A stretch of 64,000 nt of DNA, taken from NCBI GenBank assembly GCA_024614665.1, contig GCA_024614665.1_4861.1; one strand, given 5' to 3'. The stretch's first letter is position 1. Each line of letters begins with the position of its first letter. This DNA is from a phage. The position numbers were made by a program, and so were the translations under genes. The notes beneath the pieces were generated by a model, which saw nothing but the letters and a program-made list of their open reading frames with translations, made no database searches and was not told the origin of the DNA. Shown here piece after piece: positions 29,563 to 46,420 of the stretch.

Positions 29563-29574
29563 GGAGATTTTTGA

Positions 29575-32500
29575 ATGAAAACGTATCCTTACGATCCTCG
29601 GGGTGTAAATCCCGAGTGTCACTTCATCGAGGAACGTATCATCGACTCCGACAATCCTAACGATCGGGTGGTGATGCTAGATCATCGCCCGTTTTTCGAA
29701 GGATTGGTGGTAACGCTCGCCGGCTCGTCCATACCGCTTACCCGCGGGACGGACTATGAGCTGGAGTATGCTTTAACACCGTTGGACGACTCGGTGACGA
29801 CCCCGGTGTTCTGTGGGGTGCATCTTATTAACCCTAAACTGCGTGGTGCAGTGGTCTTTGAAGGCCAGATGCTCGGGGGTACGTTTTACAGTGGTCTGAT
29901 TGAGATGTTGGATGAGCTAATTAAGGCTCTCAACAATCCAACGGCTGCAGATTGGCTGCTTTTAGGTAATCGACCTTCCCTGTACCCAGCCACCCCTGCA
30001 GCGGTAGCTTGGTCAGACATGCTGAATAAAAAGTATGTTGCCTCTGCAGTGCATGATGTGGAGTTAGATGCCGGGGCGGCCAACGAGCAGATTCGTGAAA
30101 AGCTTACCGAGCTGAAAGATACGGTTCTGGCCTTAGGAACTGAAATCGCCACATTTAACTACCCCGGACACATTGCGTCCACTAACCCTCATGGGACTAC
30201 CGCGGCGCAGGCCGGTGCGCATCCTGTCAACCTGAAAACGCCAGATACTTTCCTGGCGTACGGAAAGACGTTGCGTCAGTTAACCAGCGAGGTCCGTGCA
30301 CTGGGTCTGCAGCAATCGGATATCGACAAGTACATTTCTAAATGGGTATCGAAAGAATCCAAAGGGGTGTTTAATGCGACGATATCTGGTACTCGTGCCC
30401 TGTTCCGTTCTCCTGCTGGCGAATCTGAAATTGTGTTCTCTGCTGAGGCTTTCACTCTTAAATCTAATGGCTCTGTTGTGTTGGCGTGTGGGTATGCCGA
30501 TACTACTGGAACCGTCCGGTTTATGGAGTGGAAAGCAGGCATCAATACATTACGTATTGAGTCGACTGGCAGTGCCTTGGGGATGGATAAGCTGACGCTT
30601 AACGGAACAACGTTGCTGACCACCACCGCTCTCATGGGCTATCAACAAGACCCTGGTGCCGGCGGTGGTACCGGCGGTGGTACCGTTGACCCGGATGACA
30701 ATAAACTGTACATTAGCGGGGTGAACGGCATTACTTTCACGGGTAAAGGGTCAAAAGCCGATCCCGTCGCCGGGAAGGTCACAGCCAAGCCAGCGACGAC
30801 CTCTGAACCCGGCGTTGTGACGCTAACTGATAAGCCGAGCGATGTAGTCAAAGGACAAGCAGCCACCCCAGCTTCGCTCTTACCGTACGAGGGTGATCTG
30901 TCTTCGTACGTCAGGAAGACAACACTGCTGAATAACCAGCCGATGGACACTGGTAGCCGAACGCTAACGAAAAAGGATTTGGGTCTGGACTTGGCTGATA
31001 ACACAGCTGACGTCGATAAACCACTTTCTGATTCGTTGGCAGAAGCAGTTACTGGTCTTAGTGATAAAGGCCACCATCACAACTTCGCCGATTTACAGAT
31101 CCCAACGGCTTCTCAAACAGTTCCCGGTATCGCTCGATATTCTACCAACCTAAATAGCTTGTCGGATAATCGCGGCGTTACCCCGAACGTACTGAACGAT
31201 TTGTCAAAACGTTTAGACGTAGTTGCAGCTGCGCTAGCAAACGCGAAAGAGGACACCGTGACCGATTTTGCCGCTGTGCGCGGTAAGACTTGGACTGTGG
31301 GGTCTTCACGTACCACCCTCGCCGTAACGGATTTGAATTATTTCTATCTGTTAAATGGTGCACGTAAAGAGGGGACGGTATCCGGTTCGATAGACCTGCA
31401 AACCACGCCGATGTTCCAGTGGTTCTCTCCAGATAACCGTATGGAAAGAACGTGGCAGAACGCGGTAATCAATACCGGTGCCGGTATTGATTTTAGTGGG
31501 TTTGAGGTTGCCGTCCCGGAAACGGACTACGGTGCCCAGATTGGTTTAACGACAACCGGAATGGGTGATTTGTCGGTCGTTAACCTCTTGGCGAAAACGT
31601 GGGTTCGTTGCGACTCTGGTAAGCTGCGGATTTGGGTTCGTGGCGGTGGTGCTGTTTCTGTTTATCTAGACGGTGAAATTATCGCTGCGGGTATTACAGA
31701 AGCGGGGTATCTGGAGGCGACTGTCAAGGAGGGGTGGAAGCAACACTGCTTAGCATTCCGTGCCGAGTGTAACGATAGCGCTAAAGCAGCCGCAATTCGT
31801 TTCACAATTTACGACGGTGACTTTGCGGTTGGGGCCTCGGATAAAAACACCAAAGTTGCCCGCCTGCAGGAGTTTGTTAAGACACCGAATGGTTTAAGGC
31901 ATTACCTCTATGTGAACATGATAACCGATGCGTTATATTCGCGCGCCGAACCTATTGTGGACACGGATGGTATTAACCTGGAGCGCGGGTACATTGGTTA
32001 CATTGATGTGCCCGAGACGGGATTGGTTGCAGGTACGACTTACGAGTTTGAAACGACGTTTGATTTTGGCATGGCGTCCGAACTTAAACGGCACTTCGAA
32101 ACACGTCTGGCGCACGGAGTGAGTAATACCGACTGGTCGTTGACGGATAACCCGAAAATGCTGCCGTTGAATAAGGTTGATCCGTTACCTAAACAATGGC
32201 TGTACGCGTATCCAACTAACCCGTCAGTTTCTGGGGATAACCTCGTTCGTTTAGATCGTGGGTTATTTGATTATAAATTCGTAAGTGCCACCTCGCTCAC
32301 GATTCTTCTTGCGGCGGTTGTTTCCACTGAAAACGCGTCCCCGTATTGCTGGTTTACACCAAGCAACCCGAAAGAAAATGGAATGGCGACATTCGAGGGT
32401 TCGGTGGTAATCGACACTGATTATCCTGAAGTCCCAAAAACCTCGGACGTCGAAGTTTCATTAAACTTCATGGCCCCTTCTGCTGATGGGAAAGGTAAAA

Positions 32501-33717
32501 CCAGAGTTCTGCAGTGGAGTAATTCCAAGACCAGTTTAAACTGTGGCTTTATTGCTGCGCCGTACGATAAACCAACCGGAAGAATTGCCAGCACACAATC
32601 CAGCGTTACTAATACGCTGGTTGATGCTCCTCGTGTAATCAAGAGCGTGGAAGTTCAGTCGCCTGACTGTTTAGACTATCTCCCGGTTTCAATCGCTAGC
32701 GAGTTCGCAGCCATTGGTTCACGCTGGCTTATTCGTTATCGCTATATTGTTGATACGCAGATACTGCGAATATCGACGATTAGTAAGATAGGTGGCCAGG
32801 CTTCGGCAACTGTTCGTGAGATAGAATACGACATTCCGTTTGACGCGATTGATTATTTTAAAGGTGGCGCTTTATCGATTAGTGTTACTGGCATCGAAAC
32901 TGGTGAAGGCGTCACAATCAACCACGGTTTGATGGACCCCTCCACAACAGAAGTAGATTTAAATCGTTTCCATTATCTACGCTCATTATTTGAGTCGTAT
33001 ATTGAGCGTTCTCCAGACACCCAGTCTTCTGGGCATGAGGAGATGTCGATATCAACCGTCACGTTCGCGAACTTTGGAGATAACGTCGATAACCCGGTTA
33101 CGGAATACATCACGTTGTCTGCTGCAGGCGAGGGTTATCCGGAACTTGCACCGAATGGTAAACTCCCTGCACCGTTTTACAAAGGACTGCAGAAACGTGG
33201 TGCTCCGCTACTTGAGTCGGCTCCTACAGACTATACGTCTAACGGTGGTGAATGGAAGTACGGCTTTATGCGGGCTTATCGCCCAACTCAAAATGAGCGT
33301 TTTGTGTCGGTAAATGGGACAATGCTCTCTAACTACCCTGGATACATCATCGTGGGTAGTGAGAAAATTCCGGGTAATGTTATACCTTTCAGTGCATCGA
33401 CAACAGCTGTTCAGATATCTGGGACTCTTGCCCGCACGAAACCGATGCAGCCAATTCACATCGTGTTCGTGCCTCCGGAAGGTTCTGTGCCGCCACTGCA
33501 AGCGAAGTTCACTATTAATGGTGTGGGCAGTAGTGGTAATCCGTTGTTCGTGATTACTGAAACGACACCGGTGGAACTTCGCACAGGTGGCGAGACGGTC
33601 CTCATTGAGAAGCGTAATCCATTCCACATCCCCACCAGGACATGGGATTGGATTTTACAAACGTTGGATACTGAACGTAGAAACGAAGGCAACAACTCGG
33701 GTGAGTGGGCCTCTTAG
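29575..33717 (+). CDS. tail fibre-like protein (1380 aa)
   Basis: AAGGAG RBS; ATTSEPGVVTLTDKPSDV and GIARYSTNLNSL fibre-type motifs; Gly-rich GAGGGTGGGT linker. Confidence 0.75.
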   Translation: MKTYPYDPRGVNPECHFIEERIIDSDNPNDRVVMLDHRPFFEGLVVTLAGSSIPLTRGTDYELEYALTPLDDSVTTPVFCGVHLINPKLRGAVVFEGQMLGGTFYSGLIEMLDELIKALNNPTAADWLLLGNRPSLYPATPAAVAWSDMLNKKYVASAVHDVELDAGAANEQIREKLTELKDTVLALGTEIATFNYPGHIASTNPHGTTAAQAGAHPVNLKTPDTFLAYGKTLRQLTSEVRALGLQQSDIDKYISKWVSKESKGVFNATISGTRALFRSPAGESEIVFSAEAFTLKSNGSVVLACGYADTTGTVRFMEWKAGINTLRIESTGSALGMDKLTLNGTTLLTTTALMGYQQDPGAGGGTGGGTVDPDDNKLYISGVNGITFTGKGSKADPVAGKVTAKPATTSEPGVVTLTDKPSDVVKGQAATPASLLPYEGDLSSYVRKTTLLNNQPMDTGSRTLTKKDLGLDLADNTADVDKPLSDSLAEAVTGLSDKGHHHNFADLQIPTASQTVPGIARYSTNLNSLSDNRGVTPNVLNDLSKRLDVVAAALANAKEDTVTDFAAVRGKTWTVGSSRTTLAVTDLNYFYLLNGARKEGTVSGSIDLQTTPMFQWFSPDNRMERTWQNAVINTGAGIDFSGFEVAVPETDYGAQIGLTTTGMGDLSVVNLLAKTWVRCDSGKLRIWVRGGGAVSVYLDGEIIAAGITEAGYLEATVKEGWKQHCLAFRAECNDSAKAAAIRFTIYDGDFAVGASDKNTKVARLQEFVKTPNGLRHYLYVNMITDALYSRAEPIVDTDGINLERGYIGYIDVPETGLVAGTTYEFETTFDFGMASELKRHFETRLAHGVSNTDWSLTDNPKMLPLNKVDPLPKQWLYAYPTNPSVSGDNLVRLDRGLFDYKFVSATSLTILLAAVVSTENASPYCWFTPSNPKENGMATFEGSVVIDTDYPEVPKTSDVEVSLNFMAPSADGKGKTRVLQWSNSKTSLNCGFIAAPYDKPTGRIASTQSSVTNTLVDAPRVIKSVEVQSPDCLDYLPVSIASEFAAIGSRWLIRYRYIVDTQILRISTISKIGGQASATVREIEYDIPFDAIDYFKGGALSISVTGIETGEGVTINHGLMDPSTTEVDLNRFHYLRSLFESYIERSPDTQSSGHEEMSISTVTFANFGDNVDNPVTEYITLSAAGEGYPELAPNGKLPAPFYKGLQKRGAPLLESAPTDYTSNGGEWKYGFMRAYRPTQNERFVSVNGTMLSNYPGYIIVGSEKIPGNVIPFSASTTAVQISGTLARTKPMQPIHIVFVPPEGSVPPLQAKFTINGVGSSGNPLFVITETTPVELRTGGETVLIEKRNPFHIPTRTWDWILQTLDTERRNEGNNSGEWAS

Positions 33718-33728
33718 GACGGACTGCC

Positions 33729-33795
33729 TACGGGCGGGTAGTCCGTAGGTAAACCGCCCTTCCGTTATTGGGAGGGCGGTCTCCGTTTTATTACA
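33729..33795 (+). terminator. tandem hairpins / intrinsic terminator after tail fibre gene 2
   Basis: CCTACGG-N9-CCGTAGG then ACCGCCCTTCC-N7-GGAGGGCGGT followed by CTCCGTTTTATT. Confidence 0.55.
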
Positions 33796-33812
33796 GATTA
33801 GGAGTGTTTGCA

Positions 33813-36800
33813 ATGCCGAGAGAAGATGCGGCGCAGTTTAACGGTACGCTCAGTACCGCTACTTACCCGAACCGTTATTCGGCGGTCATTCCCGTCGAAG
33901 CACCGTTCTATCGCATCGGGTTAACGTTAACCGTTACCGATAAAACAACCGGAACCAAACGCAAGTTAATAGAAGGTCTTGATTATTTCTTAGGACATTA
34001 CTTCCAGGAATTAGCCGAGGCTGAGAACGATGCAATATACGGCAGCATAATGCTGCTGAACGCCACAGAGGTAGAATACGAGTTGTTGTCGGTTGGTCGA
34101 CAGTATCGCATCCCTGCTTCTGAAATCGGCAAGTATCTGGTTAAGACAGATATGAAAGACCCGCGTAACTGCGATTGGTCTGAGCTGATGAAATATCCGC
34201 CGATTATCTCGCCAATCGACCCGCCAAAAGACCTCGAAGAAGCGATTCTTCGCGATGAAATCGTAAAGGCGTTGGAAGATATCCGTCTGGGTATTTTAGA
34301 GCGCGCCCACGAGCTGGATGAGGCTTTTGCCGAAGTTACCGATTTGATTTATCAGAACGGTAAGCAGGTGTTTGAAGATGAGATGTATCAGCACCACCTG
34401 GTTAAAAACGCACACGGTTACACCTGCGGTGATATTGGCGCTCTCCCGGTACTCGGCAAAGCCGTAGATGCGACTAAGGCATTCGGACGTACCCTGGCAG
34501 AGCTAGTGACGTTAATGTCTACCAGCGGCATCCAACAGAAACACGTTGACATGCTTCTGGATAATACCCTGGGTGATTTACTGGGCCGTATGCGTGTTCT
34601 GAATAACGACGCGATTACGTTCCAAACAACGTCTGGTCACGTTATCAGCATGAAGGGTGAGAAGTTCATCATCACCTCGACAAAACCGCTGGTATTAAAA
34701 GCTGACCAGGATAACAACGAACCGGGTATCGCTACGGAGTTCAGTGCTGGTCTGAACACGCTTTGGGTTCACTCGGGTAAAGCAGGTGACAAGTGGGGCG
34801 ATTATGATGCGGGTGTGCTTGCACCTGTGTATAATAGCGTGTATCTCGTTACACCGGATATGGTTAAGATGTACTTGACCTCGGTGAAGATACTTCCAGC
34901 AAACGCCTACTTCAAGTCCAGCGACACGTTGAAGATTTATGGCTCTGGTAAAGAAACAAACAAAGTTTACATGAATGCGGAGCTGCCTGCAGCAACCACA
35001 ACTGTGCAGGGTTTGTTTGCGATTACTAACCTTTCGGCGTCCGCTGCATCGTCCACAGCGATTTCCCAAAAAGCTGTTACTGACTTGAAGAACAAACTCG
35101 ACGGATATGTGGACGACACGTATACGGTCAACGGCAAAGGGTTTGTGTTAGACGAAAACGGTCAAATGCATTTAACCTTAACCGCGTCGGATTTCGGTAT
35201 TGAGAAGATGAACAATACCGGGCCGCTGGAGAAACCGGTTACTAATGCGTTGCGCACCGTGCTATCAGGCAAGGCACTCTCAACACACACCCACACCATT
35301 GCTGATCTCGATGACGTGCCGTACGCATCCACATCTGTTACAGGTTTGGCTAAACTGTGGGATGCTATTGACACCACAACAGATAAGATGGTTACTGCCC
35401 GCCAGGGTTTCTTGCTCGAACAGAAGATCGGTACACTGAACGACAAGATTGCTACGTTGTTGCCAGCATGGACCGTTGGCGGATCGTCGTACGGTAACAA
35501 TAACTTCTTGCCTATACCTGTCCAGGGGAACTACGAAGGGTACACCAAAAACCAAACTTGGCAAAAAGGACTGGCGCGTTACGAGGCTGGTAAGGTTTAC
35601 TCGTTGCGTAATGGTTCCAACGGTAACGCCCCTGCTGACTGGGCTATCTATTACGCCTATGCTGATGTGTCGCCAAGCAATACGCTGGAAAATATGCAGC
35701 AGACGTCCGTACGTTATCACCCCGCTGGAATGTCGGCGTATCCTGGGGTGAATCTGGTTGCTATTCTGATTACCGGTACAGATGCAATGATCTGCTTAGG
35801 CAGTGACGGTGCGTATTACCTGGTCATCTTTGACGGCACCATTGACCATGCAAAACATCATCGTGTTGTTAAAGTTTACTTGGGCGATTACCGAAATGGT
35901 AACGCGGCCGGTGTGATTACAACCGCACCATGGGTTGCCGATCCATCAACAAACGATTTGATCGTTTGCAACGATCGGGTTTATCTGCTCCGTACTGTGC
36001 TTACCTCCGGTGACTATTTCGTGAGTATGCGTAGCATCGCACTCGACGAACTTAATCTGGGTGGTAGCAACACGTTTGTGGCGGATGTGTTAACGGGTGG
36101 GATGTTAACGTCGGGAGATAATATCTACTTGCGTCAGGGTCAGAAACGTTCTGATACAGATGTGTTGGTAGCGCCAGTAACACAAATCTACGCAGACGCA
36201 TCGGCGAAGTGGAATAGTGCGCGAAATTTCGTCCATGGTCCGGAATGTAATCACGCGATTGCTGTGGATGGGCTGAACTTTCGTGTTGGTTTAACGCCAA
36301 CAGTCTGGTTTGCTTCTACTACAGGGCAAACTATTAACTTTAAACAATGGGTGTCAAGCTTTGTTGTTGATTGCAGTTCAATGACGGTAACGCTGGAAGG
36401 GGCTGATCGATTCCCTATTGTGGCTGATCTTACCGCGGTTCGTTATAACGGTGGTGCTGAGATTGGGATTCCGAGCTGGAAGTGGGGCGAAGGTCAAGCT
36501 AATAACCGAACCTTTGCAACATCGCAAGACAAGTATATTGTTTCGCAAGGACTTTCAGGCGATCGCGACCTAATGCCTTATGTCAGGATTACAACGTTAG
36601 ATGACGGTGTGAGTTGGTACGAGTACCTGTCGTGCGACTACAACTTCACTGCCAGAAGTTTTAGTGCGGTAATGTTAAACCAAGGACGTGGTTCTATCTA
36701 CGAGCTGGGTATGGCGTATCCGCTGACTCTGGGAGCGAATTCCAGACTTATCTGGTTGTCACAACCGCGTACCCGTTTGGCAATTGAAGTTGAGTTTGAT

Positions 36801-38996
36801 CCGAACACCACTTACTCAGGTAAGGCGGGGTATGGCCCAACTAACAATCGTCGTGTAGTAGATTCTATCACGTATGAGAATCTGTCGCAGATGTGCCACA
36901 TTGTTACACCGGCGTCGCCTGGTACAGAGTTAAACGGCTGGTATTGCACAGGACCAGAAACATTCCCTTACCACAACGTTTCCGGCACTTTCACGATTCA
37001 TGCCGATCGATTGACGCTGTCACAAGCTGAATGGAATAAGATGAAGCAGATGATCATCGACGGAGCACCGGCAGGCGCTGCGAATGGTTATGCTTCGGAA
37101 TTTATCCTTGCTGCAAATAACGCAGGAAAGGCATTGTTTTCCGTTTGGTTCATCGGCATCGGAACGGCCACACCGCTCACATTAGCACAAGTAGCATGTA
37201 CACGTACTGTGAACAATGTTAACGTGTTAGATATCTACTACTTTACACTGAAACCAACAATCAGCAACGGGCAGGTAACATTCCCCGCAGCGATATTGGC
37301 ACTGTTTGACTTCTATAACAACCTCGTCTATGGCTTGAACTATGCTACGTTGGGAGAGATAACGGGAGGAAAAACACGCCGGCCGGGACAACCTACCATG
37401 GTGTCGGTAGATGGTACGCAGTTCGGGTTGTATCTTCCACACACGTTAACCTTGCGCCAAATTGGCGACTTGGGTGCGCTTAACTACGGTGTCGGTCTTA
37501 CGCTGTCTAATGGTACCTGGACGCGTTCTTCTGCCCCGCGCGGCATTGGACGCATGGCACCATCACACACTCCAGTCAGCCCAGCTTATCTGGCTCATCG
37601 TGATCAGGTGATGCTACACAACTCATCTCTCGACTACGTCTATTGTGGTGGTATCGCAATGTCGTCGAGTGATTTTGTCGCGGCTCCTAATTTTAGTGGC
37701 CCGACTGAATCGGTCGTCATTGCTGGTGTGGAAACAGCCGAAGGTTGGCTGGTATATGTGACTGAGGAAGTTAACCTGCGTTTCGGCTCGAGCACTTATA
37801 AGCTGCCTACGTGGTATATTGACCTCAGCGCAGCGTTTCCAACAAACCATCAGAACCGGACATTCTACCTGCACGCCAAGGTAGAAAATGGTACACCGAA
37901 GTACGTAATGGACGTGATTCAACATCCAGACACTGAAACGGAACTCTATATCGGGTATGTTAAAACGGGCTCGTCGCGAGTCGTCGAGACTAATGTCGAA
38001 CATGTTAAGCGCTTGGGTGCGGTGAAACAGCTGTTGGAACACGCAGCAGTTGAGAATAAGCACGATGTGGAAGTGGGAAGGGATGCAGCAACGGGCAGAC
38101 TGGCACCATTACGTAAAGAAGCGATGGGTCCTTTGTCTATCGATGGCAAGAAAGGCTATCTGGATAGTCAGTTGCTTTATACCGTATCTGACGCACAGCG
38201 TCGCGGTAAAGCGATGGTGTCCAAACGTTTCGAAGGCTTGAAAACCTTGCCGGTGTTTACTCAGGCAAACAAGTCGGGGGCGTTTTGGAAACATCCTACA
38301 ACAATTGCGACGGTAACGGCCGATGAGAACGGTGAAGCGGCATCGTTGGGAATGGAGTGGGTAGGTATTCCAACGCCCGCCTTCTCTCCGACCACAACAT
38401 ACGCGATGGTGATGATACAAAGTAAATTCGTCGTCCCAGGTACACCTGGAGTGGAAACAACCTTTAATGTCAACATCGCCCCATGGGAGACGGTAGAAAT
38501 GTTTTTCTACAACGTCGAGGCGGAAGGTAAGGATGTTAACATTGATGAAAGTTCAGAACTGTTAACGCCGAGACCACATACCGTGTATCACGAACAGCAC
38601 TCTCTGCCCGCAGGCGTGCCATGTACGTTTACTTTCGTTGGTGTGTTGAGTTCCTCAGCGCTTGAGATGGCCAACCAGCATATTTGCTCTTGGCTTTTCA
38701 CGGACGCGGGGGGACTACCAATCACCACCGATCTTTCGGATAGTAAGATTCAAATCTTTCCAGCGGCGGGAGAGACCAACGGCACACCAGTTGTTTTTAA
38801 CAGCCGTAGCTACACGTTTGTGGATGTGGCGGGTGCAATTCCGGTTGTTACCACGGGCGCTCAGGGTTTATACCCACCACCGATCGTGGCGTGGGATGGC
38901 GATGATCTTACGTTAACGATTGCGCACGATTGGGTGAACGAGAGAGGATGGCAACAGGCTAATGTTATCCAGGTCAATCTTATGTTCCGTACCTAA
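33813..38996 (+). CDS. tail fibre-like protein (about 1727 aa)
   Basis: ORF track 33768..38996; start moved to ATG (MPRED...) with AGGAG RBS because upstream codons lie inside terminator hairpins; ATTTVQGLFAIT and STHTHTIADLDDV motifs. Confidence 0.75.
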   Translation: MPREDAAQFNGTLSTATYPNRYSAVIPVEAPFYRIGLTLTVTDKTTGTKRKLIEGLDYFLGHYFQELAEAENDAIYGSIMLLNATEVEYELLSVGRQYRIPASEIGKYLVKTDMKDPRNCDWSELMKYPPIISPIDPPKDLEEAILRDEIVKALEDIRLGILERAHELDEAFAEVTDLIYQNGKQVFEDEMYQHHLVKNAHGYTCGDIGALPVLGKAVDATKAFGRTLAELVTLMSTSGIQQKHVDMLLDNTLGDLLGRMRVLNNDAITFQTTSGHVISMKGEKFIITSTKPLVLKADQDNNEPGIATEFSAGLNTLWVHSGKAGDKWGDYDAGVLAPVYNSVYLVTPDMVKMYLTSVKILPANAYFKSSDTLKIYGSGKETNKVYMNAELPAATTTVQGLFAITNLSASAASSTAISQKAVTDLKNKLDGYVDDTYTVNGKGFVLDENGQMHLTLTASDFGIEKMNNTGPLEKPVTNALRTVLSGKALSTHTHTIADLDDVPYASTSVTGLAKLWDAIDTTTDKMVTARQGFLLEQKIGTLNDKIATLLPAWTVGGSSYGNNNFLPIPVQGNYEGYTKNQTWQKGLARYEAGKVYSLRNGSNGNAPADWAIYYAYADVSPSNTLENMQQTSVRYHPAGMSAYPGVNLVAILITGTDAMICLGSDGAYYLVIFDGTIDHAKHHRVVKVYLGDYRNGNAAGVITTAPWVADPSTNDLIVCNDRVYLLRTVLTSGDYFVSMRSIALDELNLGGSNTFVADVLTGGMLTSGDNIYLRQGQKRSDTDVLVAPVTQIYADASAKWNSARNFVHGPECNHAIAVDGLNFRVGLTPTVWFASTTGQTINFKQWVSSFVVDCSSMTVTLEGADRFPIVADLTAVRYNGGAEIGIPSWKWGEGQANNRTFATSQDKYIVSQGLSGDRDLMPYVRITTLDDGVSWYEYLSCDYNFTARSFSAVMLNQGRGSIYELGMAYPLTLGANSRLIWLSQPRTRLAIEVEFDPNTTYSGKAGYGPTNNRRVVDSITYENLSQMCHIVTPASPGTELNGWYCTGPETFPYHNVSGTFTIHADRLTLSQAEWNKMKQMIIDGAPAGAANGYASEFILAANNAGKALFSVWFIGIGTATPLTLAQVACTRTVNNVNVLDIYYFTLKPTISNGQVTFPAAILALFDFYNNLVYGLNYATLGEITGGKTRRPGQPTMVSVDGTQFGLYLPHTLTLRQIGDLGALNYGVGLTLSNGTWTRSSAPRGIGRMAPSHTPVSPAYLAHRDQVMLHNSSLDYVYCGGIAMSSSDFVAAPNFSGPTESVVIAGVETAEGWLVYVTEEVNLRFGSSTYKLPTWYIDLSAAFPTNHQNRTFYLHAKVENGTPKYVMDVIQHPDTETELYIGYVKTGSSRVVETNVEHVKRLGAVKQLLEHAAVENKHDVEVGRDAATGRLAPLRKEAMGPLSIDGKKGYLDSQLLYTVSDAQRRGKAMVSKRFEGLKTLPVFTQANKSGAFWKHPTTIATVTADENGEAASLGMEWVGIPTPAFSPTTTYAMVMIQSKFVVPGTPGVETTFNVNIAPWETVEMFFYNVEAEGKDVNIDESSELLTPRPHTVYHEQHSLPAGVPCTFTFVGVLSSSALEMANQHICSWLFTDAGGLPITTDLSDSKIQIFPAAGETNGTPVVFNSRSYTFVDVAGAIPVVTTGAQGLYPPPIVAWDGDDLTLTIAHDWVNERGWQQANVIQVNLMFRT

Positions 38997-39043
38997 CAGA
39001 TAGCGCTATGGGGCAAGGAAGCCCCAATCAAAGGAGTTTGGCA

Positions 39044-40246
39044 ATGGCCGAAATCATTTATCAGTACCCGCTCGACCTTACCGGGACATTAACGTCGAAC
39101 GCCGTTACGCGGCGTATTACGTTAGGTTCTGGTAAAGTTAACCGGGCTTTTGCATTTCCTGACGGAGCTTTCTACGCGGATACTTTCCGCTTAGCGGCTG
39201 CGAACAAACCGGGTGTCTACCCGTACAAACGTGGTACAGACTACGAGCTGATTTTTGCACATACTGCATATCAGAAAATGACCAAGAACCGCGAAGTGGT
39301 CATGGGTGTGGTGGTAACTAACTCGGCCATTCCTACAGATATCGAAGTCTCTGCGCAAGTCGTTGGTGGTTTTCAGTCTGCGAACGTCGAAGGCATCCGA
39401 CAAGCGATTGCGTCGTTGAAAATTGAAGACCGCGTGGTGGACTTCAAGGATCTTCGGAACGTACCCGATACGTTCCCGTCCGCACCGACGTATAAAGACC
39501 TTGGCGATATCTACGGTTTTGAGTACATCATTACCGTGCTCGCGGGGATTAAAGATGCGATTAACTCCGGCTCTGCAGTACAGCTGGAAGAAATTAAAGG
39601 TATTCTGGACGGTCTGAAAAACGACTTCCTCGATGCCTTAAATACCCACATCAACGCCGAAGGTAACGTACACAATCTCGACATTCATCAGGTTAATGGC
39701 CTGACGGAGACGGAGATTCGTGCTCTGATTCAAAGTGTACAGACTGCCATTGACGCCACTATCAGAGATATCGGCGACTTAAGAGCAGCAGACACGGCGT
39801 TGGGGCAACGCATCGATGCAGTTGTGGCTTCGTTAGCCGCGTGGAACGACCAGCTTAATGTAGTTGCTCAAAATTACCAGAAAATGTCGTTAGCATTAGC
39901 TAACCTTAATTCTCTGGTGTTGCAATTACAGAAGAAGGTTAATGATCTTCAGTCTGCGCTGAATGAAACAAATCAGCGTGTCACGGATCTTGAGAATCAA
40001 GGCAAAGACTTCCAACAGCAAATTGATAACCTGCAAGGACAAATCAACAGTCTTAAAACTCAGGTTGTAAACAACACCAACGCAATTTCGCAGGCAAACC
40101 AGAATCTGGCGAACCATGCGGCTGCGGATAACCCACACCCGAATTACCTCCATAAACAGTATGGCGGTGTTGTGCAGGCTGCTGTTCACGTCAACAACAA
40201 CCTCACCTCGCGCGACGATGTTCAAGCTGAAGCGGGTACTAAGTAA
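39044..40246 (+). CDS. tail fibre-like protein with C-terminal coiled coil (about 400 aa)
   Basis: ORF track 39008..40246; ATG (MAEIIYQ...) with AAGGAG RBS; shared N-terminal module (GTDYELIFAHTAY); heptad-like Q/N/L-rich segment. Confidence 0.7.
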   Translation: MAEIIYQYPLDLTGTLTSNAVTRRITLGSGKVNRAFAFPDGAFYADTFRLAAANKPGVYPYKRGTDYELIFAHTAYQKMTKNREVVMGVVVTNSAIPTDIEVSAQVVGGFQSANVEGIRQAIASLKIEDRVVDFKDLRNVPDTFPSAPTYKDLGDIYGFEYIITVLAGIKDAINSGSAVQLEEIKGILDGLKNDFLDALNTHINAEGNVHNLDIHQVNGLTETEIRALIQSVQTAIDATIRDIGDLRAADTALGQRIDAVVASLAAWNDQLNVVAQNYQKMSLALANLNSLVLQLQKKVNDLQSALNETNQRVTDLENQGKDFQQQIDNLQGQINSLKTQVVNNTNAISQANQNLANHAAADNPHPNYLHKQYGGVVQAAVHVNNNLTSRDDVQAEAGTK

Positions 40247-40253
40247 CTTGTTT

Positions 40254-40300
40254 ACGAGCCGGACTATGTTTATGGACATAGTCCGCTCGTTCTACTTTTT
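40254..40300 (+). terminator. intrinsic terminator between tail fibre module and Cys-rich peptide genes
   Basis: long imperfect hairpin ACGAGCCGGACTATG...CATAGTCCGCTCGT followed by TCTACTTTTT. Confidence 0.6.
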
Positions 40301-40311
40301 AAGGAAGCGTA

Positions 40312-40704
40312 ATGGCGATATCTATTAAAGACGTCAGAAACCGCGTCCAGATAGTCGAAGCTAACATGGCGACAGGCCCCCGTATCGACGCGCAAGTGGC
40401 CTCTAAAGCCCATAACGCGGCAGACCGATTTGGGGGTTGGACGAAAACACAGCTAGATTGCGGCGGGACATGTTCTTGGACGTGCTCTAACGGTTGCTCG
40501 CATGGCTGTTCGAGCTGTTCAGGAAGCTGTTCTGCTTCTTGTATCGGTAGCTGTTCTTCGACGTGTGGCGGTAACTGTTCTGGTTGCTCTGGTTGTTCTG
40601 GTGGTTGCAGTAGTAGCTGTACCGGTAACTGCACAGGTGGTTGCGGTGGCTCTTGTTCCGCAAACTGCTCCGGGGCCTGCTCCGGCGGCTGTTCAGGTCG
40701 CTAA
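40312..40704 (+). CDS. Cys-rich repeat peptide 1 (130 aa), candidate radical-SAM substrate
   Basis: AAGGAAG RBS; about 50-aa leader-like N-terminus then core with Cys every 4th residue (CSNGCSHGCSSCSGSCSASC...). Confidence 0.7.
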   Translation: MAISIKDVRNRVQIVEANMATGPRIDAQVASKAHNAADRFGGWTKTQLDCGGTCSWTCSNGCSHGCSSCSGSCSASCIGSCSSTCGGNCSGCSGCSGGCSSSCTGNCTGGCGGSCSANCSGACSGGCSGR

Positions 40705-41110
40705 GGGGGATTAAATGGCAATTGGATTAAAAGAACTGAATAACCGATTAAACACGATCGATGCAAACGCTCTAAAGAATACCACGAATGTGCAAAACTA
40801 CATTCGCAATAAAGCTACGAATAACGCCGACTTGTTCGCAGGTCAAGGCCGTTCGCACTATGACTGTGGTGGCACATGCTCTTTTAGTTGCTCGAGTTGT
40901 TCTGGCGGATGTACTGGGTCTGCGACAGGTGGTTGTGGGTCGACTTGTTCGGCAAACTGTGTATCAGGCTGTAGCAGCAGCTGCACGGGCTGTAGCTCTT
41001 CGTGCTCTGGTGGTTGTAGCGGCACGTGCACAGGCAGCTGTTCTGGGGGTTGTGGTAAATCCTGCTCCGCAAACTGCTCAGGTGCGTGCTCTGGTGGTTG
41101 TTCAGGTCCT
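40480..41110 (+). repeat. periodic Cys-codon region encoding the cores of Cys-rich peptides 1 and 2
   Basis: 12-nt (4-codon) periodicity of TGT/TGC; Ser and Gly codons vary synonymously between repeats, so periodicity is at protein level. Confidence 0.6.
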
Positions 41111-41119
41111 AACTCCTAA
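40715..41119 (+). CDS. Cys-rich repeat peptide 2 (134 aa), paralog of peptide 1
   Basis: AAGGGGGA RBS; conserved leader and DCGGTCS core entry; same C-terminal CSANCSGACSGGCSG ending as peptide 1. Confidence 0.7.
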   Translation: MAIGLKELNNRLNTIDANALKNTTNVQNYIRNKATNNADLFAGQGRSHYDCGGTCSFSCSSCSGGCTGSATGGCGSTCSANCVSGCSSSCTGCSSSCSGGCSGTCTGSCSGGCGKSCSANCSGACSGGCSGPNS

Positions 41120-41134
41120 CTGACGGAGGCTTAT

Positions 41135-41341
41135 GTGATCAGTCTCAAGACTATTCGAAACCGTCTCGTTACGGCAGAAGGCTACATTACAACCGCGCAG
41201 GCAAACAACTATATCGCTAACCAGGGCACCGTGTCAACCACGAACAACCTGGCTGGTTTACCGCTTTCTCACTATAACTGTAATGGTGGGTGTAGCTGGT
41301 CCTGCAGCGGAAGCTGTAGCCGTGGAGCGGGGAATCGATAA
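41135..41341 (+). CDS. Cys-rich repeat peptide 3 (68 aa, short paralog)
   Basis: GTG start with GACGGAGG RBS; leader related to peptides 1 and 2; short core NCNGGCSWSCSGSCS. Confidence 0.55.
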   Translation: MISLKTIRNRLVTAEGYITTAQANNYIANQGTVSTTNNLAGLPLSHYNCNGGCSWSCSGSCSRGAGNR

Positions 41342-41363
41342 CAGAAAACGTTCGGAGTATTAA

Positions 41364-42251
41364 ATGAAAAACGATTTGCATCTTGCGTATAAAACCACAT
41401 TCAACCACCCGCTGCATCTATCTTCCCCAGATTCGGTGCGTGCACACCTCGCTGACAAAGTCAGACTGATTGCACAGATTCCTGGTGAGTGGCCAAAGGT
41501 TCGTGGTCGCTTCTTGACCGACAAGAAGAACTACACCGTAGAAAATACGTTTAAGATCCGTGATATGGTTGCAGAGGCCATCGTTATCTTTAACGGCGAT
41601 GGTAACTCTCGCGGCGTGTTGGTTGACGGTAAGTATTTCTTCAGTGAAGGGATTCTGAACAACAGTGTCGATTTAGAACTGATGTTTACACCGTTTGACG
41701 AACTCGAAGCAAAACCGATGGCGCGCCGTTGGTGGAGTCCGGACTATCTGGGCTCGTTCCCTTACTACTTTGTACTGGTACCTGCCGATACGGAAACGTA
41801 TTTCGACACCGAACCGTACATCGATATCGAGGGATATAAAGAACTCGGCATCACCCGTTTAGCGGACATGATGGCGTATAGCTATAAGTTCGTGTGGGAT
41901 AAAAAGCGTTCTGTCTGGTATGCGCTGACTGACGATTTTGAAATCACCAAACGTATTCGTAAGCCGTGGATGCAACACCTGGTTCAAACCCGATATGGGG
42001 ATTACCCGGCGACAGAAGCGGATTTGAGTAAGCTGGTAAGCTTCCTCTTAACGAAGGTGGATTTAACGAAAGAAGAAGCAGAAGCTGTTTCTGAGATTCG
42101 TAGTCGTTCGGTTACGTTGGCCGATTTGAAACGCTTGAACGAAAGACATGCCGACCTGAACAAAATTTTAGCTGCCTATCACGACCCGATGTTACTGGTG
42201 CCTGGCGCTAATGTAGACGAAGATCCTTTATTCGCCATTGATTATATTTAA
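41364..42251 (+). CDS. hypothetical protein (295 aa) within the radical-SAM cluster
   Basis: ORF track; co-directional, tightly packed between precursors and radical-SAM genes. Confidence 0.6.
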   Translation: MKNDLHLAYKTTFNHPLHLSSPDSVRAHLADKVRLIAQIPGEWPKVRGRFLTDKKNYTVENTFKIRDMVAEAIVIFNGDGNSRGVLVDGKYFFSEGILNNSVDLELMFTPFDELEAKPMARRWWSPDYLGSFPYYFVLVPADTETYFDTEPYIDIEGYKELGITRLADMMAYSYKFVWDKKRSVWYALTDDFEITKRIRKPWMQHLVQTRYGDYPATEADLSKLVSFLLTKVDLTKEEAEAVSEIRSRSVTLADLKRLNERHADLNKILAAYHDPMLLVPGANVDEDPLFAIDYI

Positions 42252-42273
42252 AAATATACTGGAGCAACCTGCA

Positions 42274-43188
42274 ATGACAGATCAAGTAGAATCCAGGATC
42301 TCGTCTGAACTGTACGACAAACCGTCAATTCTGTCGGTTGTCGCAACTTCTAAGTGTAACTTAGACTGTAGCTTCTGTGGAGGGGCTTATTACATGGATA
42401 GAGAAGATACTTCTCGTGAGTTTCAACGTGAAGAGATTCTCTCGATTTTAGAGAAGAATCCGGATATCGGTGAAATTCATTGGACGGGCGGTGAGCCGCT
42501 GTTAGCGCAGCGCAAGATTGAAGACTTCGTGAACGAGTTGAAGGAGTCTCATCCGAACCTCCGTCATCACATGTACACCAACGGTTTAAAGATGCGTAAA
42601 TCACATCTGCCGTTGCTGAAACAGTTCGACCTTATCTTTGTGTCCATTGACGGCTACAAGAAGTCGGAACGTCCGTTTATGAACTTTGTAAACGGTGGTA
42701 ATCACGAAGCGCTGGAAGTGCTGTACGAGCTGGACAACTATTACACCTGGGGTGTGATGACGCGTGACCAGTTAGGTGATAAACGCTGGTACGAAGATTT
42801 CATCGAGCTGCACCGAGCAATCTATCATTACCGTCCAGGTGGTATGTCGTTGCTGTTTGATGCGATGATGCCGAAACCGTTATCGCCAGACCACGTCATG
42901 AACTTCATGTACGGGTATTGGAAAATACTCGACAATATCGAACGCCTTAACATGCAGAACGATTCTGAGTGTGGGCTTGCGATCAGTAAAATGTTCGATA
43001 CTGAGTGCAACACGTGCAGTGAAGTGCTGTGGCTTAACGCCGACGGTACGCAGGAGCAAATTCAGAACGCCCCAGAGATATTGGAAGTCGGCTGTAATCG
43101 CCTGGCGCGTTCTATCGGCGTTGATGCGTATAACTACATCAACCGTGTAATTTCTGCTAAGCGTAAACGGGCGGCGAACAATGAGTAA
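42274..43188 (+). CDS. radical SAM enzyme (about 304 aa)
   Basis: CNLDCSFC (CxxxCxxC) near N-terminus; GGEPLL; C-terminal Cys cluster (ECGLA...ECNTCSE...GCN); ATG with CTGGAG RBS (ORF track starts 42238). Confidence 0.75.
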   Translation: MTDQVESRISSELYDKPSILSVVATSKCNLDCSFCGGAYYMDREDTSREFQREEILSILEKNPDIGEIHWTGGEPLLAQRKIEDFVNELKESHPNLRHHMYTNGLKMRKSHLPLLKQFDLIFVSIDGYKKSERPFMNFVNGGNHEALEVLYELDNYYTWGVMTRDQLGDKRWYEDFIELHRAIYHYRPGGMSLLFDAMMPKPLSPDHVMNFMYGYWKILDNIERLNMQNDSECGLAISKMFDTECNTCSEVLWLNADGTQEQIQNAPEILEVGCNRLARSIGVDAYNYINRVISAKRKRAANNE

Positions 43189-44509
43189 CAGCGAACAGCA
43201 AATCCAGTACACACCACGCACGTATCAGGTTGTGACTAACCTGTCATGTAATCTGGACTGCGAATACTGCTACGAGCGTAAATATCCTCGTAACAACAAA
43301 GTAGCAGACGTGATTGATTTTATCCACGCTTGTTTCGAGCGTGATAAAGATATCCCGAACGTTGAGGTCATCATCGATATCATCGGTGGTGAGCCGTTCA
43401 TGCAGCCTAAACTTCTTTTGGCGGCCTTTGAAACCGCAGAGAAGTTATGCGCAGAACACAATCGCCCGTATATGTTCAGTATCTCCACGAACGGTACACT
43501 TCTGGACCGTCCGCTGAACAAAGAAATTATCGAGCGCTGGAAAGACAAACTGTCTATTGGGGTCTCCATCGATGGTTTACCTGAAGTCCATGACAAATAT
43601 CGTATCTTTACCACGACGCGTGAAGGGTCGTACGAAGCTGCGGTACGCGGTTACAATTATCTGAAGAGTGTTGGCATCGCTGAATTAGGCGTAAAGGCGA
43701 CGTTTACGATCGATACATTGCCGCACTATGCCGCCAGCATGAAATCGTTAATTGACATGTCCGGCGGTGGTACCATTTCTGGTAACGTAACGTACGAAGA
43801 TATCCTGCCGCGCCATATGGCGTTGGATATCGCGAACCAGATGATGGACGTGATGGACTACTGGATTGAGAAGGGTCTGCACACCAACCCGCGTAACACG
43901 ATTACACACATCATCCCGGATGGCCTGAACTTTATGGCAACTTGGGACCCGGATTGGCGTGACAAACTCTTACATGACGACTCTGTTCGTCTCGACCCAG
44001 AACGCCTGAAACCGTACTGCGGTACGTTGACGCACATGACCTGTCTCGGCTTTGATCGCAAGATTTACGGTTGTAACCGTTTCATGTCCACGGTAACTTC
44101 CCGTTCTGCTGTAGCAGAACTGGTCGGTCGTGAGTTTGTGAGCCTGGACGGTGGTAAGTTGTTAGAAGAGATTCAAACACAGTACACCAACTACCCAGAA
44201 ACCTGTTTAGGGTGTCCGATGAAACACAGTTGCGGTAGCTGCGCAGCAGCATCGTACGAAAACGGTGAAGGTACACTGGAAGACCGTAAAGCGTATCACG
44301 CCGAGCGTCGTCAGTGTGGTTGGACTACTGCGAAGCTGATGGCGGCGGAATATTGGTATCAGAAAACTGGTACGACCCGCGCATCAGATTTGCATGATAA
44401 ATCCATGTGCTATTGTTCACGTTGTGTACGCCAACGTGCTGAAGCAGAAAAATTACAAAACGGAGCCCAGAATGAAGTCAATACTGATTCACAATTTTAC
44501 GAAGCGTAA
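43181..44509 (+). CDS. radical SAM enzyme with SPASM-like C-terminal domain (442 aa)
   Basis: CNLDCEYC (CxxxCxxC); IGGEPF; C-terminal CLGCPMKHSCGSC resembling the SPASM auxiliary-cluster motif; start overlaps stop of preceding radical-SAM gene by 8 nt. Confidence 0.8.
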   Translation: MSNSEQQIQYTPRTYQVVTNLSCNLDCEYCYERKYPRNNKVADVIDFIHACFERDKDIPNVEVIIDIIGGEPFMQPKLLLAAFETAEKLCAEHNRPYMFSISTNGTLLDRPLNKEIIERWKDKLSIGVSIDGLPEVHDKYRIFTTTREGSYEAAVRGYNYLKSVGIAELGVKATFTIDTLPHYAASMKSLIDMSGGGTISGNVTYEDILPRHMALDIANQMMDVMDYWIEKGLHTNPRNTITHIIPDGLNFMATWDPDWRDKLLHDDSVRLDPERLKPYCGTLTHMTCLGFDRKIYGCNRFMSTVTSRSAVAELVGREFVSLDGGKLLEEIQTQYTNYPETCLGCPMKHSCGSCAAASYENGEGTLEDRKAYHAERRQCGWTTAKLMAAEYWYQKTGTTRASDLHDKSMCYCSRCVRQRAEAEKLQNGAQNEVNTDSQFYEA

Positions 44510-45038
44510 ACTGCACTTGGTCGATCGCTTCCTGCGCAAAAGCAAGCTGTACAATGTGCACGCAATTGTGGCAGGGGAAGACTTCACTGATGAAATCCAA
44601 AGCCTGTTGATTAAATACGGGCTGAATGTGATGATCCCGGTCTACTGCGTTGAGAAAGGACACGAGTCTGTCGCGGAAATCGAAAAGCGCAACCCCGGCT
44701 TTGAGAAGCGACTGCTTGCATACCCACGCCACAAAATCGAACTGCTACGTCACTCTATTGATGAAGCCAGTCCTGAAAGTTTAGTGGCTTTGGGCTTGTC
44801 TTTCCCGCGGATGCGTATTCGTAACTTACGCTCCAATAACCCGGTTGACGCTTATTACACAGAGCGTCAAATCTTCGAAGAACACCTGCTCCCGCAGTTG
44901 GAAGAAGAAGAGCAACACAACATTTCTCTGTTGTGGGCCGGTAACCTCGATCAGGACTTCCAGATGCTGGACTTCGGTTTGTTGTTAGAACTTGGCCTGA
45001 TTGAGGAGGACGAATGTCTGTTACTGACAAAAGCTTAA
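44472..45038 (+). CDS. hypothetical protein (about 188 aa)
   Basis: ORF track 44394..45038; ATG (MKSILIH...) with ACGGAG RBS; overlaps 3' end of SPASM gene. Confidence 0.5.
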   Translation: MKSILIHNFTKRKLHLVDRFLRKSKLYNVHAIVAGEDFTDEIQSLLIKYGLNVMIPVYCVEKGHESVAEIEKRNPGFEKRLLAYPRHKIELLRHSIDEASPESLVALGLSFPRMRIRNLRSNNPVDAYYTERQIFEEHLLPQLEEEEQHNISLLWAGNLDQDFQMLDFGLLLELGLIEEDECLLLTKA

Positions 45039-45685
45039 CGAACGAAGAGATCCGCGCCCGTTATTTCCAGCGTGATTTGCCGATTGATCGTCACGGTAAT
45101 TTCATGGAACGAATCGGTGCGCAGGATCAGGGCCGTACAGGCTTTTGCGCTCTGCTCCATTATCATCTCATCGAAGGGATGTCTGATAAAGAAGCCCTGG
45201 CACGCATGAAGCTGTATGAGATGTCGGAGATTGAAGCTAACTTCACATTGAAACGCACGAAAGAGTTTATTGCTAATGTGCTGGAGATTGACCTCGACGA
45301 AATTCGCGGGAATCTGAAATCTACCGCACGTTACATTTACGAAGACGTGCAGAAGATGCTGTTGGAGCTTGACCACCGCTACGAAGATGAGCGTCATGGT
45401 TATATCGAGTTTGAAGGTAGTCACTTTCAAGCCGATGAATCGTCGCGTACCATCCTCGGTCAATACATTCAGGCAGATACCGCACCAGAATACTGGCTCG
45501 ATACGCTGAATACTAAGCACAGTCCGTTTACAGTAGCCCAATGTAAAGCGTTGCTGGCCGCTATTGTTGCACGTGACCAAGTGTTGCACTCAGCAATGGC
45601 AGATAACAAACGCCATATCCGTGAGTTAGCTGAAAAGCGCGATTACACTGGATTAAAAACATTGTCCGAATCTCTCGGCATTTAA
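45014..45685 (+). CDS. hypothetical protein (223 aa)
   Basis: GAGGAGG RBS; followed by bidirectional terminator. Confidence 0.6.
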   Translation: MSVTDKSLTNEEIRARYFQRDLPIDRHGNFMERIGAQDQGRTGFCALLHYHLIEGMSDKEALARMKLYEMSEIEANFTLKRTKEFIANVLEIDLDEIRGNLKSTARYIYEDVQKMLLELDHRYEDERHGYIEFEGSHFQADESSRTILGQYIQADTAPEYWLDTLNTKHSPFTVAQCKALLAAIVARDQVLHSAMADNKRHIRELAEKRDYTGLKTLSESLGI

Positions 45686-45687
45686 GC

Positions 45688-45745
45688 AAAGAAAATAAAG
45701 GCCCTACCTCCCTTCGGGGAGGTAGGTACCTTATTTTATTTCTTA
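45688..45745. terminator. bidirectional intrinsic terminator closing the radical-SAM cluster
   Basis: A-rich run, hairpin CCTACCTCCC-TTCG-GGGAGGTAGG, T-rich run; between convergent genes ending 45685 and 45766. Confidence 0.7.
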
Positions 45746-45765
45746 GAAACTACTAAGTTGTTTTG

Positions 45766-46293
45766 TTAAACGAATCCGTCCAGTTCACCGTTGGTGGTGC
45801 TCAGGTCAGTTTTAACGATTGGCTGCGTTACAGTATAAACTGCAGGGCTGCCAGGTCGGTATTTAATGTGGCCTGATTTCACCTTAACAGTGATGACTTT
45901 CTCACCACTGCTGCCGTCCACGCGTTTAATGATGAGTTCAGACAATGCAAACGCATCTTCCGTTTTACCGGCGGCAATTAGATCTGCGTTGACAAAAGCA
46001 AGCACTTCTTCATCGGTATCCCATTCTGCCTGGTCAGCGGTAACTGCCTTCTCACCGATGATGTCCGATAAATTGAGGCGGGTATAATGCAGCTCTTTCA
46101 CGCCAGTAAAGTTAGCGGATTCCGCGGTGGCGGTGATGGTGAGATTGGTGTTGCGAGTGTCTCCAGAATCTGCTGGTGAATAGTCAGCAACAGCGCCGAA
46201 TGTAACGTCAGCAGCAGTTAACGGACTAGGCAGTCCGCTGTTTGCAGCATTAAACAGCGCGACGAGTTGGTCTTTTGCAGAGATGACTGCCAT
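45766..46293 (-). CDS. short family-A paralog (175 aa)
   Basis: AAGGAAA RBS; LHYTRLNLSDI motif and C-terminal TNGELDGFV shared with long family-A proteins. Confidence 0.6.
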   Translation of the reverse strand: MAVISAKDQLVALFNAANSGLPSPLTAADVTFGAVADYSPADSGDTRNTNLTITATAESANFTGVKELHYTRLNLSDIIGEKAVTADQAEWDTDEEVLAFVNADLIAAGKTEDAFALSELIIKRVDGSSGEKVITVKVKSGHIKYRPGSPAVYTVTQPIVKTDLSTTNGELDGFV

Positions 46294-46420
46294 GGTTGTT
46301 TCCTTATAGTAGGTTTGTGGTGCATACTAAATCGTTCTAAAAAAAATACATAGTGGGCTTAATATGACAGTAAAGTTGACTGTTAAACGAGAAAATTATT
46401 TACCACTGAAAGGATACCTT

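Follow-up and report, generated by a model that had tools for sequence, protein, structure and literature searches.

Two radical-SAM enzymes of a SPN3US-like jumbo phage and a probable maturation module for cysteine-repeat tail-fibre domains

We analysed a stretch of phage DNA of 64,000 nucleotides (GenBank assembly GCA_024614665.1, contig GCA_024614665.1_4861.1), hereafter the window, in which two neighbouring plus-strand genes at 42274-44509 encode radical S-adenosylmethionine (SAM) enzymes, named here enzyme A and enzyme B. Judged by its sequence the window is that of a SPN3US-like Salmonella jumbo phage, its region 40000-45700 being 99.4% identical to Salmonella phage SaP7 (Seoulvirus SPN3US) and 99.1% identical to SPN3US (genus Seoulvirus). 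SPN3US, a phiKZ-related jumbo phage of 240 kb, is established as a genetic model, with amber mutants and proteomics available. We argue that the two enzymes probably supply the catalysis in a four-gene maturation module, specific to phages and shared with a gp165-like partner and cysteine-repeat proteins, which acts on the cysteine-repeat domains of fibre proteins.

Two different radical-SAM enzymes

Enzyme A (42274..43188, + strand, 304 residues, gp164 of SPN3US) and enzyme B (43181..44509, + strand, 442 residues, gp163 of SPN3US) scored 58.6 and 55.6 bits against the Pfam Radical_SAM model (PF04055), whose gathering threshold is 29.5 bits. A script check located both signature motifs in each of them, namely CNLDCSFC at residues 28-35 and GGEP at 72-75 of enzyme A, and CNLDCEYC at 23-30 and GGEP at 69-72 of enzyme B, so that both belong to the radical-SAM superfamily. 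The catalytic motifs of enzyme A are invariant in its family alignment, and among 32 homologues of enzyme B, the most distant at 31% identity, the three cysteines of the radical-SAM motif, together with eight others, were invariant or nearly so. Since the Pfam threshold was passed and the motif cysteines are conserved to this degree, the motifs are not there by chance, and both enzymes are apparently active. Profile-profile comparison aligned the two over the radical-SAM core only (residues 16-205), their C-terminal domains being unrelated, and at the level of sequence they are genuinely different enzymes, as the original prediction had held. The lengths of the two open reading frames (ORFs), the CxxxCxxC and GGEP motifs and the 8-nt overlap which it had reported were likewise confirmed by the ORF list and the script. 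The overlap of the enzyme A stop and the enzyme B start lies within AACAATGAGTAA and is partly conserved, being identical in Erwinia phage Asesino and replaced by gaps of 10-12 nt in CR5 and Kwan.

The eight further cysteines of enzyme B (280, 288, 298, 342, 345, 351, 354 and 379; window 44018-44317) are the number needed to fully ligate two auxiliary [4Fe-4S] clusters, as in SPASM domains, which suggests such clusters here. Residues 342-354 form CLGCPMKHSCGSC, that is C-x2-C-x5-C-x2-C, and when the C-terminus was scanned alone against the curated SPASM model TIGR04085 it scored 26.6 bits against a cut-off of 27, over model positions 1-86 of 93. The SPASM-like motif ascribed to this enzyme is supported by eight invariant cysteines and a near-threshold score, but the protein does not stop there, because the invariant Cys379 and a CxCxxC at 410-415 follow it. 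This CxCxxC is specific to the jumbo-phage clade and is located in an extra C-terminal tail (window 44408-44506); several members, including the window protein, share the end motif SQFYEA, and the shorter distant homologues lack most of the tail.

Profile searches had been set beforehand as the test that could refute a peptide-modifying role, and for enzyme B they found the nearest families to be the peptide maturases TIGR04115 and PapB and not those of cofactor biosynthesis, so that the role was not refuted. These were the top two curated families for 32/32 members of the enzyme B family. The window protein scored 125.6 bits against TIGR04115, without reaching its cut-off of 350, and 113.6 bits against PapB (NF047865), without reaching its cut-off of 340, the latter alignment covering model positions 12-319 of 330. 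Scores for cofactor enzymes and for the anaerobic sulfatase maturase were far below both. Among proteins of solved structure in the PDB, the best sequence relative of enzyme B was CteB.

For enzyme A the ATG at 42274 is the right start, although an in-frame TTG exists further upstream at 42238, because the ATG is preceded by a GGAG Shine-Dalgarno sequence 9-10 nt upstream and the homologues start at the same residue. It may be noted that in the SPN3US, STsAS and CR5 records gp164 begins at an internal Met, giving proteins of about 260 residues (window 42274-42396), and CxxxCxxC is missing from the annotated gp164 because this internal start lies downstream of the motif. The short C-terminal cysteine cluster predicted for enzyme A was recovered as three conserved cysteines, 245, 248 and 274 (window 43006-43095). 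In the predicted model (pLDDT, the predicted local distance difference test score, 87.6) a beta-hairpin at 251-262, with strands 251-254 and 260-262, sits between Cys248 and Cys274, and a helix (275-281) directly follows Cys274. A twitch domain is a truncated SPASM domain in which a beta-hairpin flanked by cysteines is followed by a helix and which binds one auxiliary cluster; the C-terminus of enzyme A, as modelled, has this topology and is twitch-like. In the radical-SAM class it is known that a substrate cysteine can be bound at an open iron of an auxiliary cluster, and by analogy the three-cysteine site of enzyme A would leave one iron free for a substrate thiolate.

The best fold matches of enzyme A in the PDB were CteB, SuiB (second-best) and anaerobic sulfatase maturase, followed by viperins. 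Scanned alone against Pfam and NCBIfam, its C-terminus gave no match, and NF033640 matched the protein with 40 bits against a cut-off of 170, in the core region alone. Cofactor or nucleotide roles, suggested by matches to MoaA, QueE, viperin and NrdG, were rejected as the primary function of enzyme A, as these matches span the shared core only. It is synteny and fold, and not a specific family match, that tie enzyme A to peptide modification.

Cysteine-repeat genes upstream of the enzymes

Three small cysteine-rich ORFs lie 1.1-2.9 kb upstream of enzyme B on the same strand, so that enzyme B, like a TIGR04115 maturase, is encoded near proteins with C-x-x-x repeats. Cysteine-repeat protein 1 (40312..40704, +, 130 residues; phrog_6085, E 9e-40) follows an AGGA Shine-Dalgarno sequence and consists of an N-terminal domain of about 49 residues and then 21 cysteines at C-x3 or C-x2 spacing (residues 50-127), ending in CSGGCSGR; it is unannotated in SPN3US and matched the repeat-protein family TIGR04114 weakly (18.5 bits, cut-off 20). 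Cysteine-repeat protein 2 (40715..41119, +; phrog_6085, E 3e-41) has 20 cysteines in 134 residues. The third is a paralogue of 68 residues with a GTG start (41135..41341, +; GGAGG Shine-Dalgarno; phrog_6085, E 2.7e-24), which has the N-terminal domain and the head motif (HYNCNGGCSWSCSGSC) of the longer two but four cysteines only, and most of the SPN3US-like phages that were examined yielded an orthologue of it. The cysteines are mostly C-x3 spaced, with Ser or Thr at X1 in 77% of units, Gly at X2 in 57%, and Ser, Gly or Thr at X3.

In comparison with STsAS (80% identical), the substitutions at codon positions 1/2/3 were 16/7/68, 13/10/74 and 5/3/27 for protein 1, protein 2 and the short paralogue, and this pile-up at the third position indicates purifying selection in the cysteine frame. 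Phages of Derbicusvirus, Wellingtonvirus and Erskinevirus keep this frame as well, which makes four genera in all. Taken with the good Shine-Dalgarno sequences before all three ORFs, the third-position bias and the conservation of the frame argue from sequence that these are real coding genes. Public records place other frames or the opposite strand there (SPN3US gp166, two SaP7 ORFs, CR5_157, Kwan gp183) and some have no call at all. Across 40312-41341 the three genes are missing, or in the wrong frame or strand, in SPN3US (both GenBank and RefSeq), SaP7, CR5, Kwan, Asesino and STsAS. SPN3US gp166 (window 40788-41123) is an alternative-frame call over the gene for cysteine-repeat protein 2, and it does not appear in the published SPN3US homologue table (PMC5105663). 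Published SPN3US proteomics was blind to the three proteins because their genes are unannotated or mis-framed.

Two architectures and the conservation of the module

A scan of IMG/VR returned at least 489 viral loci encoding a relative of enzyme B, of which the best 80 were examined. In 77 of these 80 a run of at least five C-x2-3 units was found within a few kb, and in all but one of the 77 the repeat ORF was on the strand of the adjoining enzyme gene. The link between enzymes and cysteine-rich ORFs which the original prediction had drawn by calling the latter precursors is therefore well supported. These data also bear on the view that the repeats are a metal- or iron-sulfur-binding domain with no need of covalent modification, and that the enzymes act on some other fibre protein, a nucleotide or a cofactor. 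Dense Cys-Gly-Ser repeats do look like metal-binding proteins, and the sequence matches of enzyme A include viperin, MoaA and QueE-type enzymes. However, an almost absolute association of the enzyme B family with repeat ORFs in very different phages, the restriction of the nucleotide-enzyme matches to the common core, and the fact that the top fold matches of enzyme A are peptide-modifying enzymes make it very unlikely.

The loci fall into two architectures. A two-enzyme module is present in 25 loci (L004, L005, L007 and L012-L033), whose enzyme B is at least 31% identical to the window protein, and a single-enzyme system in 58 viral loci (L034-L091), at 24-27% identity. Enzyme A and a gp165 homologue were found in 25/25 two-enzyme loci and are absent from the single-enzyme loci, and a cysteine-repeat ORF was found in 23/25 of the former and 57/58 of the latter; the two module loci in which none was found are L031, which is cut close upstream, and L032. 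The module is complete even beside distant enzyme B homologues of 32-39% identity: L004, in a prophage of Deferribacter abyssi, L005/L006, on a phage contig of 213 kb, and L007, on a contig of 140 kb, all encode a cysteine-repeat protein, a gp165 homologue, a short A-like enzyme and enzyme B. The A and B genes are tightly adjacent in all module loci except L033, which has gp165 between them. The co-presence of A and B in 25/25 loci of close relatives fits two distinct or sequential steps. A search of species-representative bacterial genomes yielded about ten CXXX systems with a single enzyme, besides many radical-SAM enzymes of unrelated kinds, but no two-enzyme module.

The two architectures also differ in their TIGR04115 scores and head motifs. 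Three other members of the two-enzyme clade that were scanned scored 144-153 bits, all below the cut-off like the window protein, and four of the five single-enzyme loci scanned scored 367-497, the fifth giving 297. The head motif of the module reads N-A-x-x-L-x-G-x5-Y-x-C-x2-3-C-S-W-[ST]-C, and that of the single-enzyme systems S-S-C-R-G-A-C-S-G-L-C.

The third conserved partner, a gp165-like protein of 295 residues (41364..42251, +), is an orphan fold. Its family numbers 49 cluster representatives among 1.84 billion proteins, and its confident predicted structure had no match in the PDB and matched its own orthologue alone in a viral structure library.

Several variants of the loci were noticed. 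In a metagenomic relative (L024, 4117-7981) a second full-length copy of enzyme A lies between two cysteine-repeat genes. On the 213-kb phage contig (L005, 3080-6001, equal to L026) enzyme A has 472 residues with an extra C-terminal half, and it is preceded by two short A-like fragments that resemble remnants of a duplication. Single-enzyme TIGR04115 systems (L034-L091, e.g. L073 3929-5431) are very common on viral contigs; their cysteine-repeat proteins have a conserved N-terminal domain of their own and reach 600 residues, one run being 379 residues long, and L059, L081 and L089 each have at least two cysteine-repeat genes or at least two enzyme gene copies. In the SPFM-series Salmonella phage records (P0081-P0084, P0136, P0139 and P0142-P0147) both enzymes and gp165 matched over short stretches only, which look like frameshifts from sequencing or assembly errors.

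Probable tail-fibre nature of the substrates

In the distant module loci the repeat domain and the head motif form the C-terminus of proteins of 250-570 residues with tail-fibre N-termini. The L007 protein passes the Pfam tail-collar fibre model PF12571 (24.2 bits against 23), the L027 protein matches tail-fibre PHROGs (E 1e-55), and the L033 protein is collagen-like with weaker tail-fibre matches. The L004 protein, encoded just downstream of a GpJ-like tail protein, has weak matches to phage tail repeats, and the L005 gene follows that of a T4 gp13-like neck protein; in all five proteins the repeat domain is C-terminal. This context points to the C-x-x-x repeat domain of tail-fibre proteins as the probable substrate of the module. 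The window's own cysteine proteins, of 68-134 residues, are linked to the tail fibre through their operon context, and we infer that the small SPN3US proteins sit on the fibre.

As for that context, four consecutive paralogous tail-fibre or baseplate ORFs of 1234, 1380, 1742 and 412 residues (25858..40246, +) precede the cysteine-repeat genes, all four matching phrog_2163 through a single common N-terminal domain. The module is the last part of this operon, which a terminator closes. The last two paralogues (1742 and 412 residues) correspond to SPN3US gp168 and gp167, for which the phiKZ virion proteins ORF134 and ORF145 are listed as the homologues of gp167 and gp168 (supplement of PMC5105663), and phiKZ gp134, the homologue of gp167, belongs to the tail-fibre basal complex (PMC13250141). 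As a side observation, the four paralogues form a fibre or baseplate family which resembles phiKZ gp131-135.

The same evidence weighs on a second alternative, in which the small proteins would be the leader-plus-core precursors of a classical diffusible RiPP (ribosomally synthesised and post-translationally modified peptide), which cleavage would set free to serve as a toxin, a bacteriocin or an anti-defence peptide and which would form no part of the virion. The three SPN3US-like proteins are indeed small and their conserved N-terminus of about 49 residues could be a leader, and the nearest characterised relatives of enzyme B make RiPPs. On the other hand, no protease or exporter was recognised among the window operon genes screened, nor beside the module in L004, L005 and L007 by precomputed Pfam matches; the genes reside inside a tail-fibre operon; and a repeat domain with its head motif at the C-terminus of a long tail-fibre protein is unlike a leader-core peptide. 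We regard a released peptide as improbable, and it is the fusion and co-occurrence data together that tell against both this and the metal-binding view. The precursors are accordingly better seen as domains of tail-fibre or fibre-associated proteins than as classical leader-core peptides.

Proposed function and comparison with known systems

We propose that the substrate of the module would be the C-x-x-x repeat domain introduced by the module head motif, borne in SPN3US-like phages by the three small proteins whose genes lie at the end of the tail-fibre operon and in other phages by the fibre C-terminus. Enzyme B would act repeatedly along the array, using its radical-SAM cluster and two auxiliary [4Fe-4S] clusters, and would most probably form thioether links from cysteine sulfur to carbon, like its relatives PapB and CteB. 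Enzyme A, with its three-cysteine auxiliary site, would perform a second, different step, and gp165 would present or chaperone the substrate. The product, located at or on the fibre, would be a covalently laddered domain that withstands reduction as well as proteases.

The closest known parallel is the pair TIGR04115/TIGR04114 (NCBIfam CXXX-repeat target maturase and Cys-rich repeat protein; Pfam PF27846), in which a SPASM-type enzyme stands beside a protein with a cysteine at about every fourth residue. It is the best-scoring family for every enzyme B family member, and its true systems were also found here mostly on viral contigs. Those true loci, however, have a single enzyme, no gp165 and their own head motif, whereas the module adds a second radical-SAM enzyme, gp165 and the N-A-x-x-L-x-G...C-S-W-T-C head on tail-fibre proteins, and the score of enzyme B is far from the 367-497 bits of true members. 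PapB (ranthipeptide maturase, NF047865) and CteB (SCIFF/thermocellin thioether synthase, PDB 5wgg/5why) form cysteine thioethers in cysteine-rich peptides and combine a radical-SAM core with a SPASM domain; the PapB model aligns over enzyme B residues 22-357, and among solved structures CteB comes closest to B in sequence and to A in fold. They differ in that enzyme B lacks an N-terminal recognition domain, since its CxxxCxxC begins at residue 23, and in that the module substrates are 20-cysteine arrays on proteins of up to 570 residues instead of short peptides, the modification here being a predicted one.

A longer maturase and a shorter second radical-SAM enzyme encoded with a short-repeat substrate are also seen in HxsB/HxsC (TIGR03978/TIGR03977). 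The matches of enzyme B include HxsB (75.1 bits) and those of enzyme A include HxsC (45 bits), with the cut-offs of 370 and 268 not reached. The repeat there is H-x-S instead of C-x-x-x and there is no phage or fibre context, which suggests a likeness of architecture and not membership. The anaerobic sulfatase-maturating enzyme (TIGR03942; PDB 4k36-4k39) is a relative of both enzymes, with the SPASM fold and two auxiliary clusters, but its model gave 57.3 and 34.4 bits against a cut-off of 349, no sulfatase gene is near the module, and the three cysteine-rich proteins contain no C/S-x-P/A-x-R motif. That a sulfatase-maturase role is unlikely, as had been predicted, is thus sustained.

These comparisons matter for a third alternative, that the module works by a chemistry other than thioether formation, such as formylglycine formation from Cys or Ser, epimerisation, or aromatic cross-linking through the invariant Trp/Tyr of the head motif. 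Both enzymes are related in sequence and fold to the anaerobic sulfatase maturase, which also has two fully ligated auxiliary clusters, as the eight cysteines of enzyme B would allow here; SuiB, which cross-links Lys to Trp, ranks second among the fold matches of enzyme A; and the head motif of the module keeps an aromatic residue, usually as C-S-W-[ST]-C. Against it stand the missing sulfatase motif in the substrates, the low score of the sulfatase-maturase model and the fact that the closest curated families target cysteine repeats, and we hold such chemistry to be unlikely, though the least so of the three alternatives. A mixed outcome may also occur, for example one in which enzyme B modifies the repeats and enzyme A the head motif.

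Some observations weigh against the proposal of a thioether-forming pair working on fibre domains. We infer the thioether chemistry of enzyme B by analogy, extrapolating from relatives whose family cut-offs it does not reach. The Pfam SPASM model (PF13186) gave no match to enzyme B, and the fourth cysteine of its motif is spaced C-x2-C where the canonical spacing is C-x3-C; because Pfam SPASM is silent and TIGR04085 falls just under its cut-off, 'SPASM-like' is the right wording for a domain recognised from its sequence. Enzyme A found no specific curated family in the NCBIfam/Pfam profile search, and its top sequence matches are a mixture of TIGR04084, tungsten-cofactor maturase, PapB, HxsC, viperin and MoaA. 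A RiPP recognition element is the domain through which such enzymes bind the substrate peptide; none was detected in gp165, which gave no functional clue. The fibre placement in SPN3US-like phages is drawn from fusions in other phages because their own cysteine-repeat proteins stand alone and no report has placed these in virions. Finally, the literature searched held no biochemical work on the module or on TIGR04115.

A bolder form of the favoured reading, that of a catalytic pair maturing cysteine-repeat fibre domains, is tentative, and we would sooner doubt it than assert it. Here the dedicated radical-SAM pair and its orphan-fold partner would ladder thioether-type cross-links into distal-fibre C-x-x-x domains, making this the first enzymatically cross-linked virion fibre, and the SPN3US products would be three virion or fibre-tip proteins that escaped proteomic and structural work. 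They would have escaped because their genes are mis-annotated and because the repeat domains are almost without tryptic sites.

Radical-SAM peptide maturases are known from bacterial natural-product pathways, and to our knowledge the post-translational chemistry of virion proteins has so far been mostly proteolysis and autocatalytic cross-links. If our proposal is true, RiPP-type chemistry extends to viral structural proteins, and the module could explain the rigidity or resistance of some receptor-binding fibres; in host-range engineering a fibre gene by itself would then not suffice for transplant. The two radical-SAM genes were already annotated and CXXX-repeat maturase systems already exist as in-silico families. 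No description of the module was found in the full-text literature searched, against which the two-enzyme variant with gp165, its restriction to phages, the tail-fibre substrates, the mis-annotated substrate genes and the gp164 start appear to be new. The practical gain is a corrected annotation of the three genes and of the gp164 start in SPN3US and its relatives; existing proteomic searches could not see the proteins because the three conserved genes are missing or mis-framed and the gp164 start is mis-placed in these records.

Other features of the operon

Two further genes lie 3' of enzyme B in the same operon, a gp162-like gene (44472-45038, +) and a gene for a gp161-like DUF4376 protein (45014-45685, +; Pfam DUF4376), with matches to phrog_7988 and phrog_8169 across the pair (44472..45685). 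Their phmmer matches were confined to loci L012-L025, and they are probably outside the module core because they are kept solely in the SPN3US-like clade. A scan of 38000-47000 against Rfam found no RNA family, and a scan for sigma-70 promoters showed no enrichment (5 sites against 8.7 expected), which is as expected since the phage brings its own RNA polymerases. The 3' end of the plus-strand fibre operon is marked by a bidirectional intrinsic-terminator-like hairpin at 45703..45726, with a 10-bp stem including 7 GC pairs. Between gp167 and the first cysteine-repeat gene we also noticed a hairpin with imperfect pairing, CGGACTATG ... CATAGTCCG, and a T-rich stretch after it (40261-40300), which may be an attenuator setting the expression level of the module.

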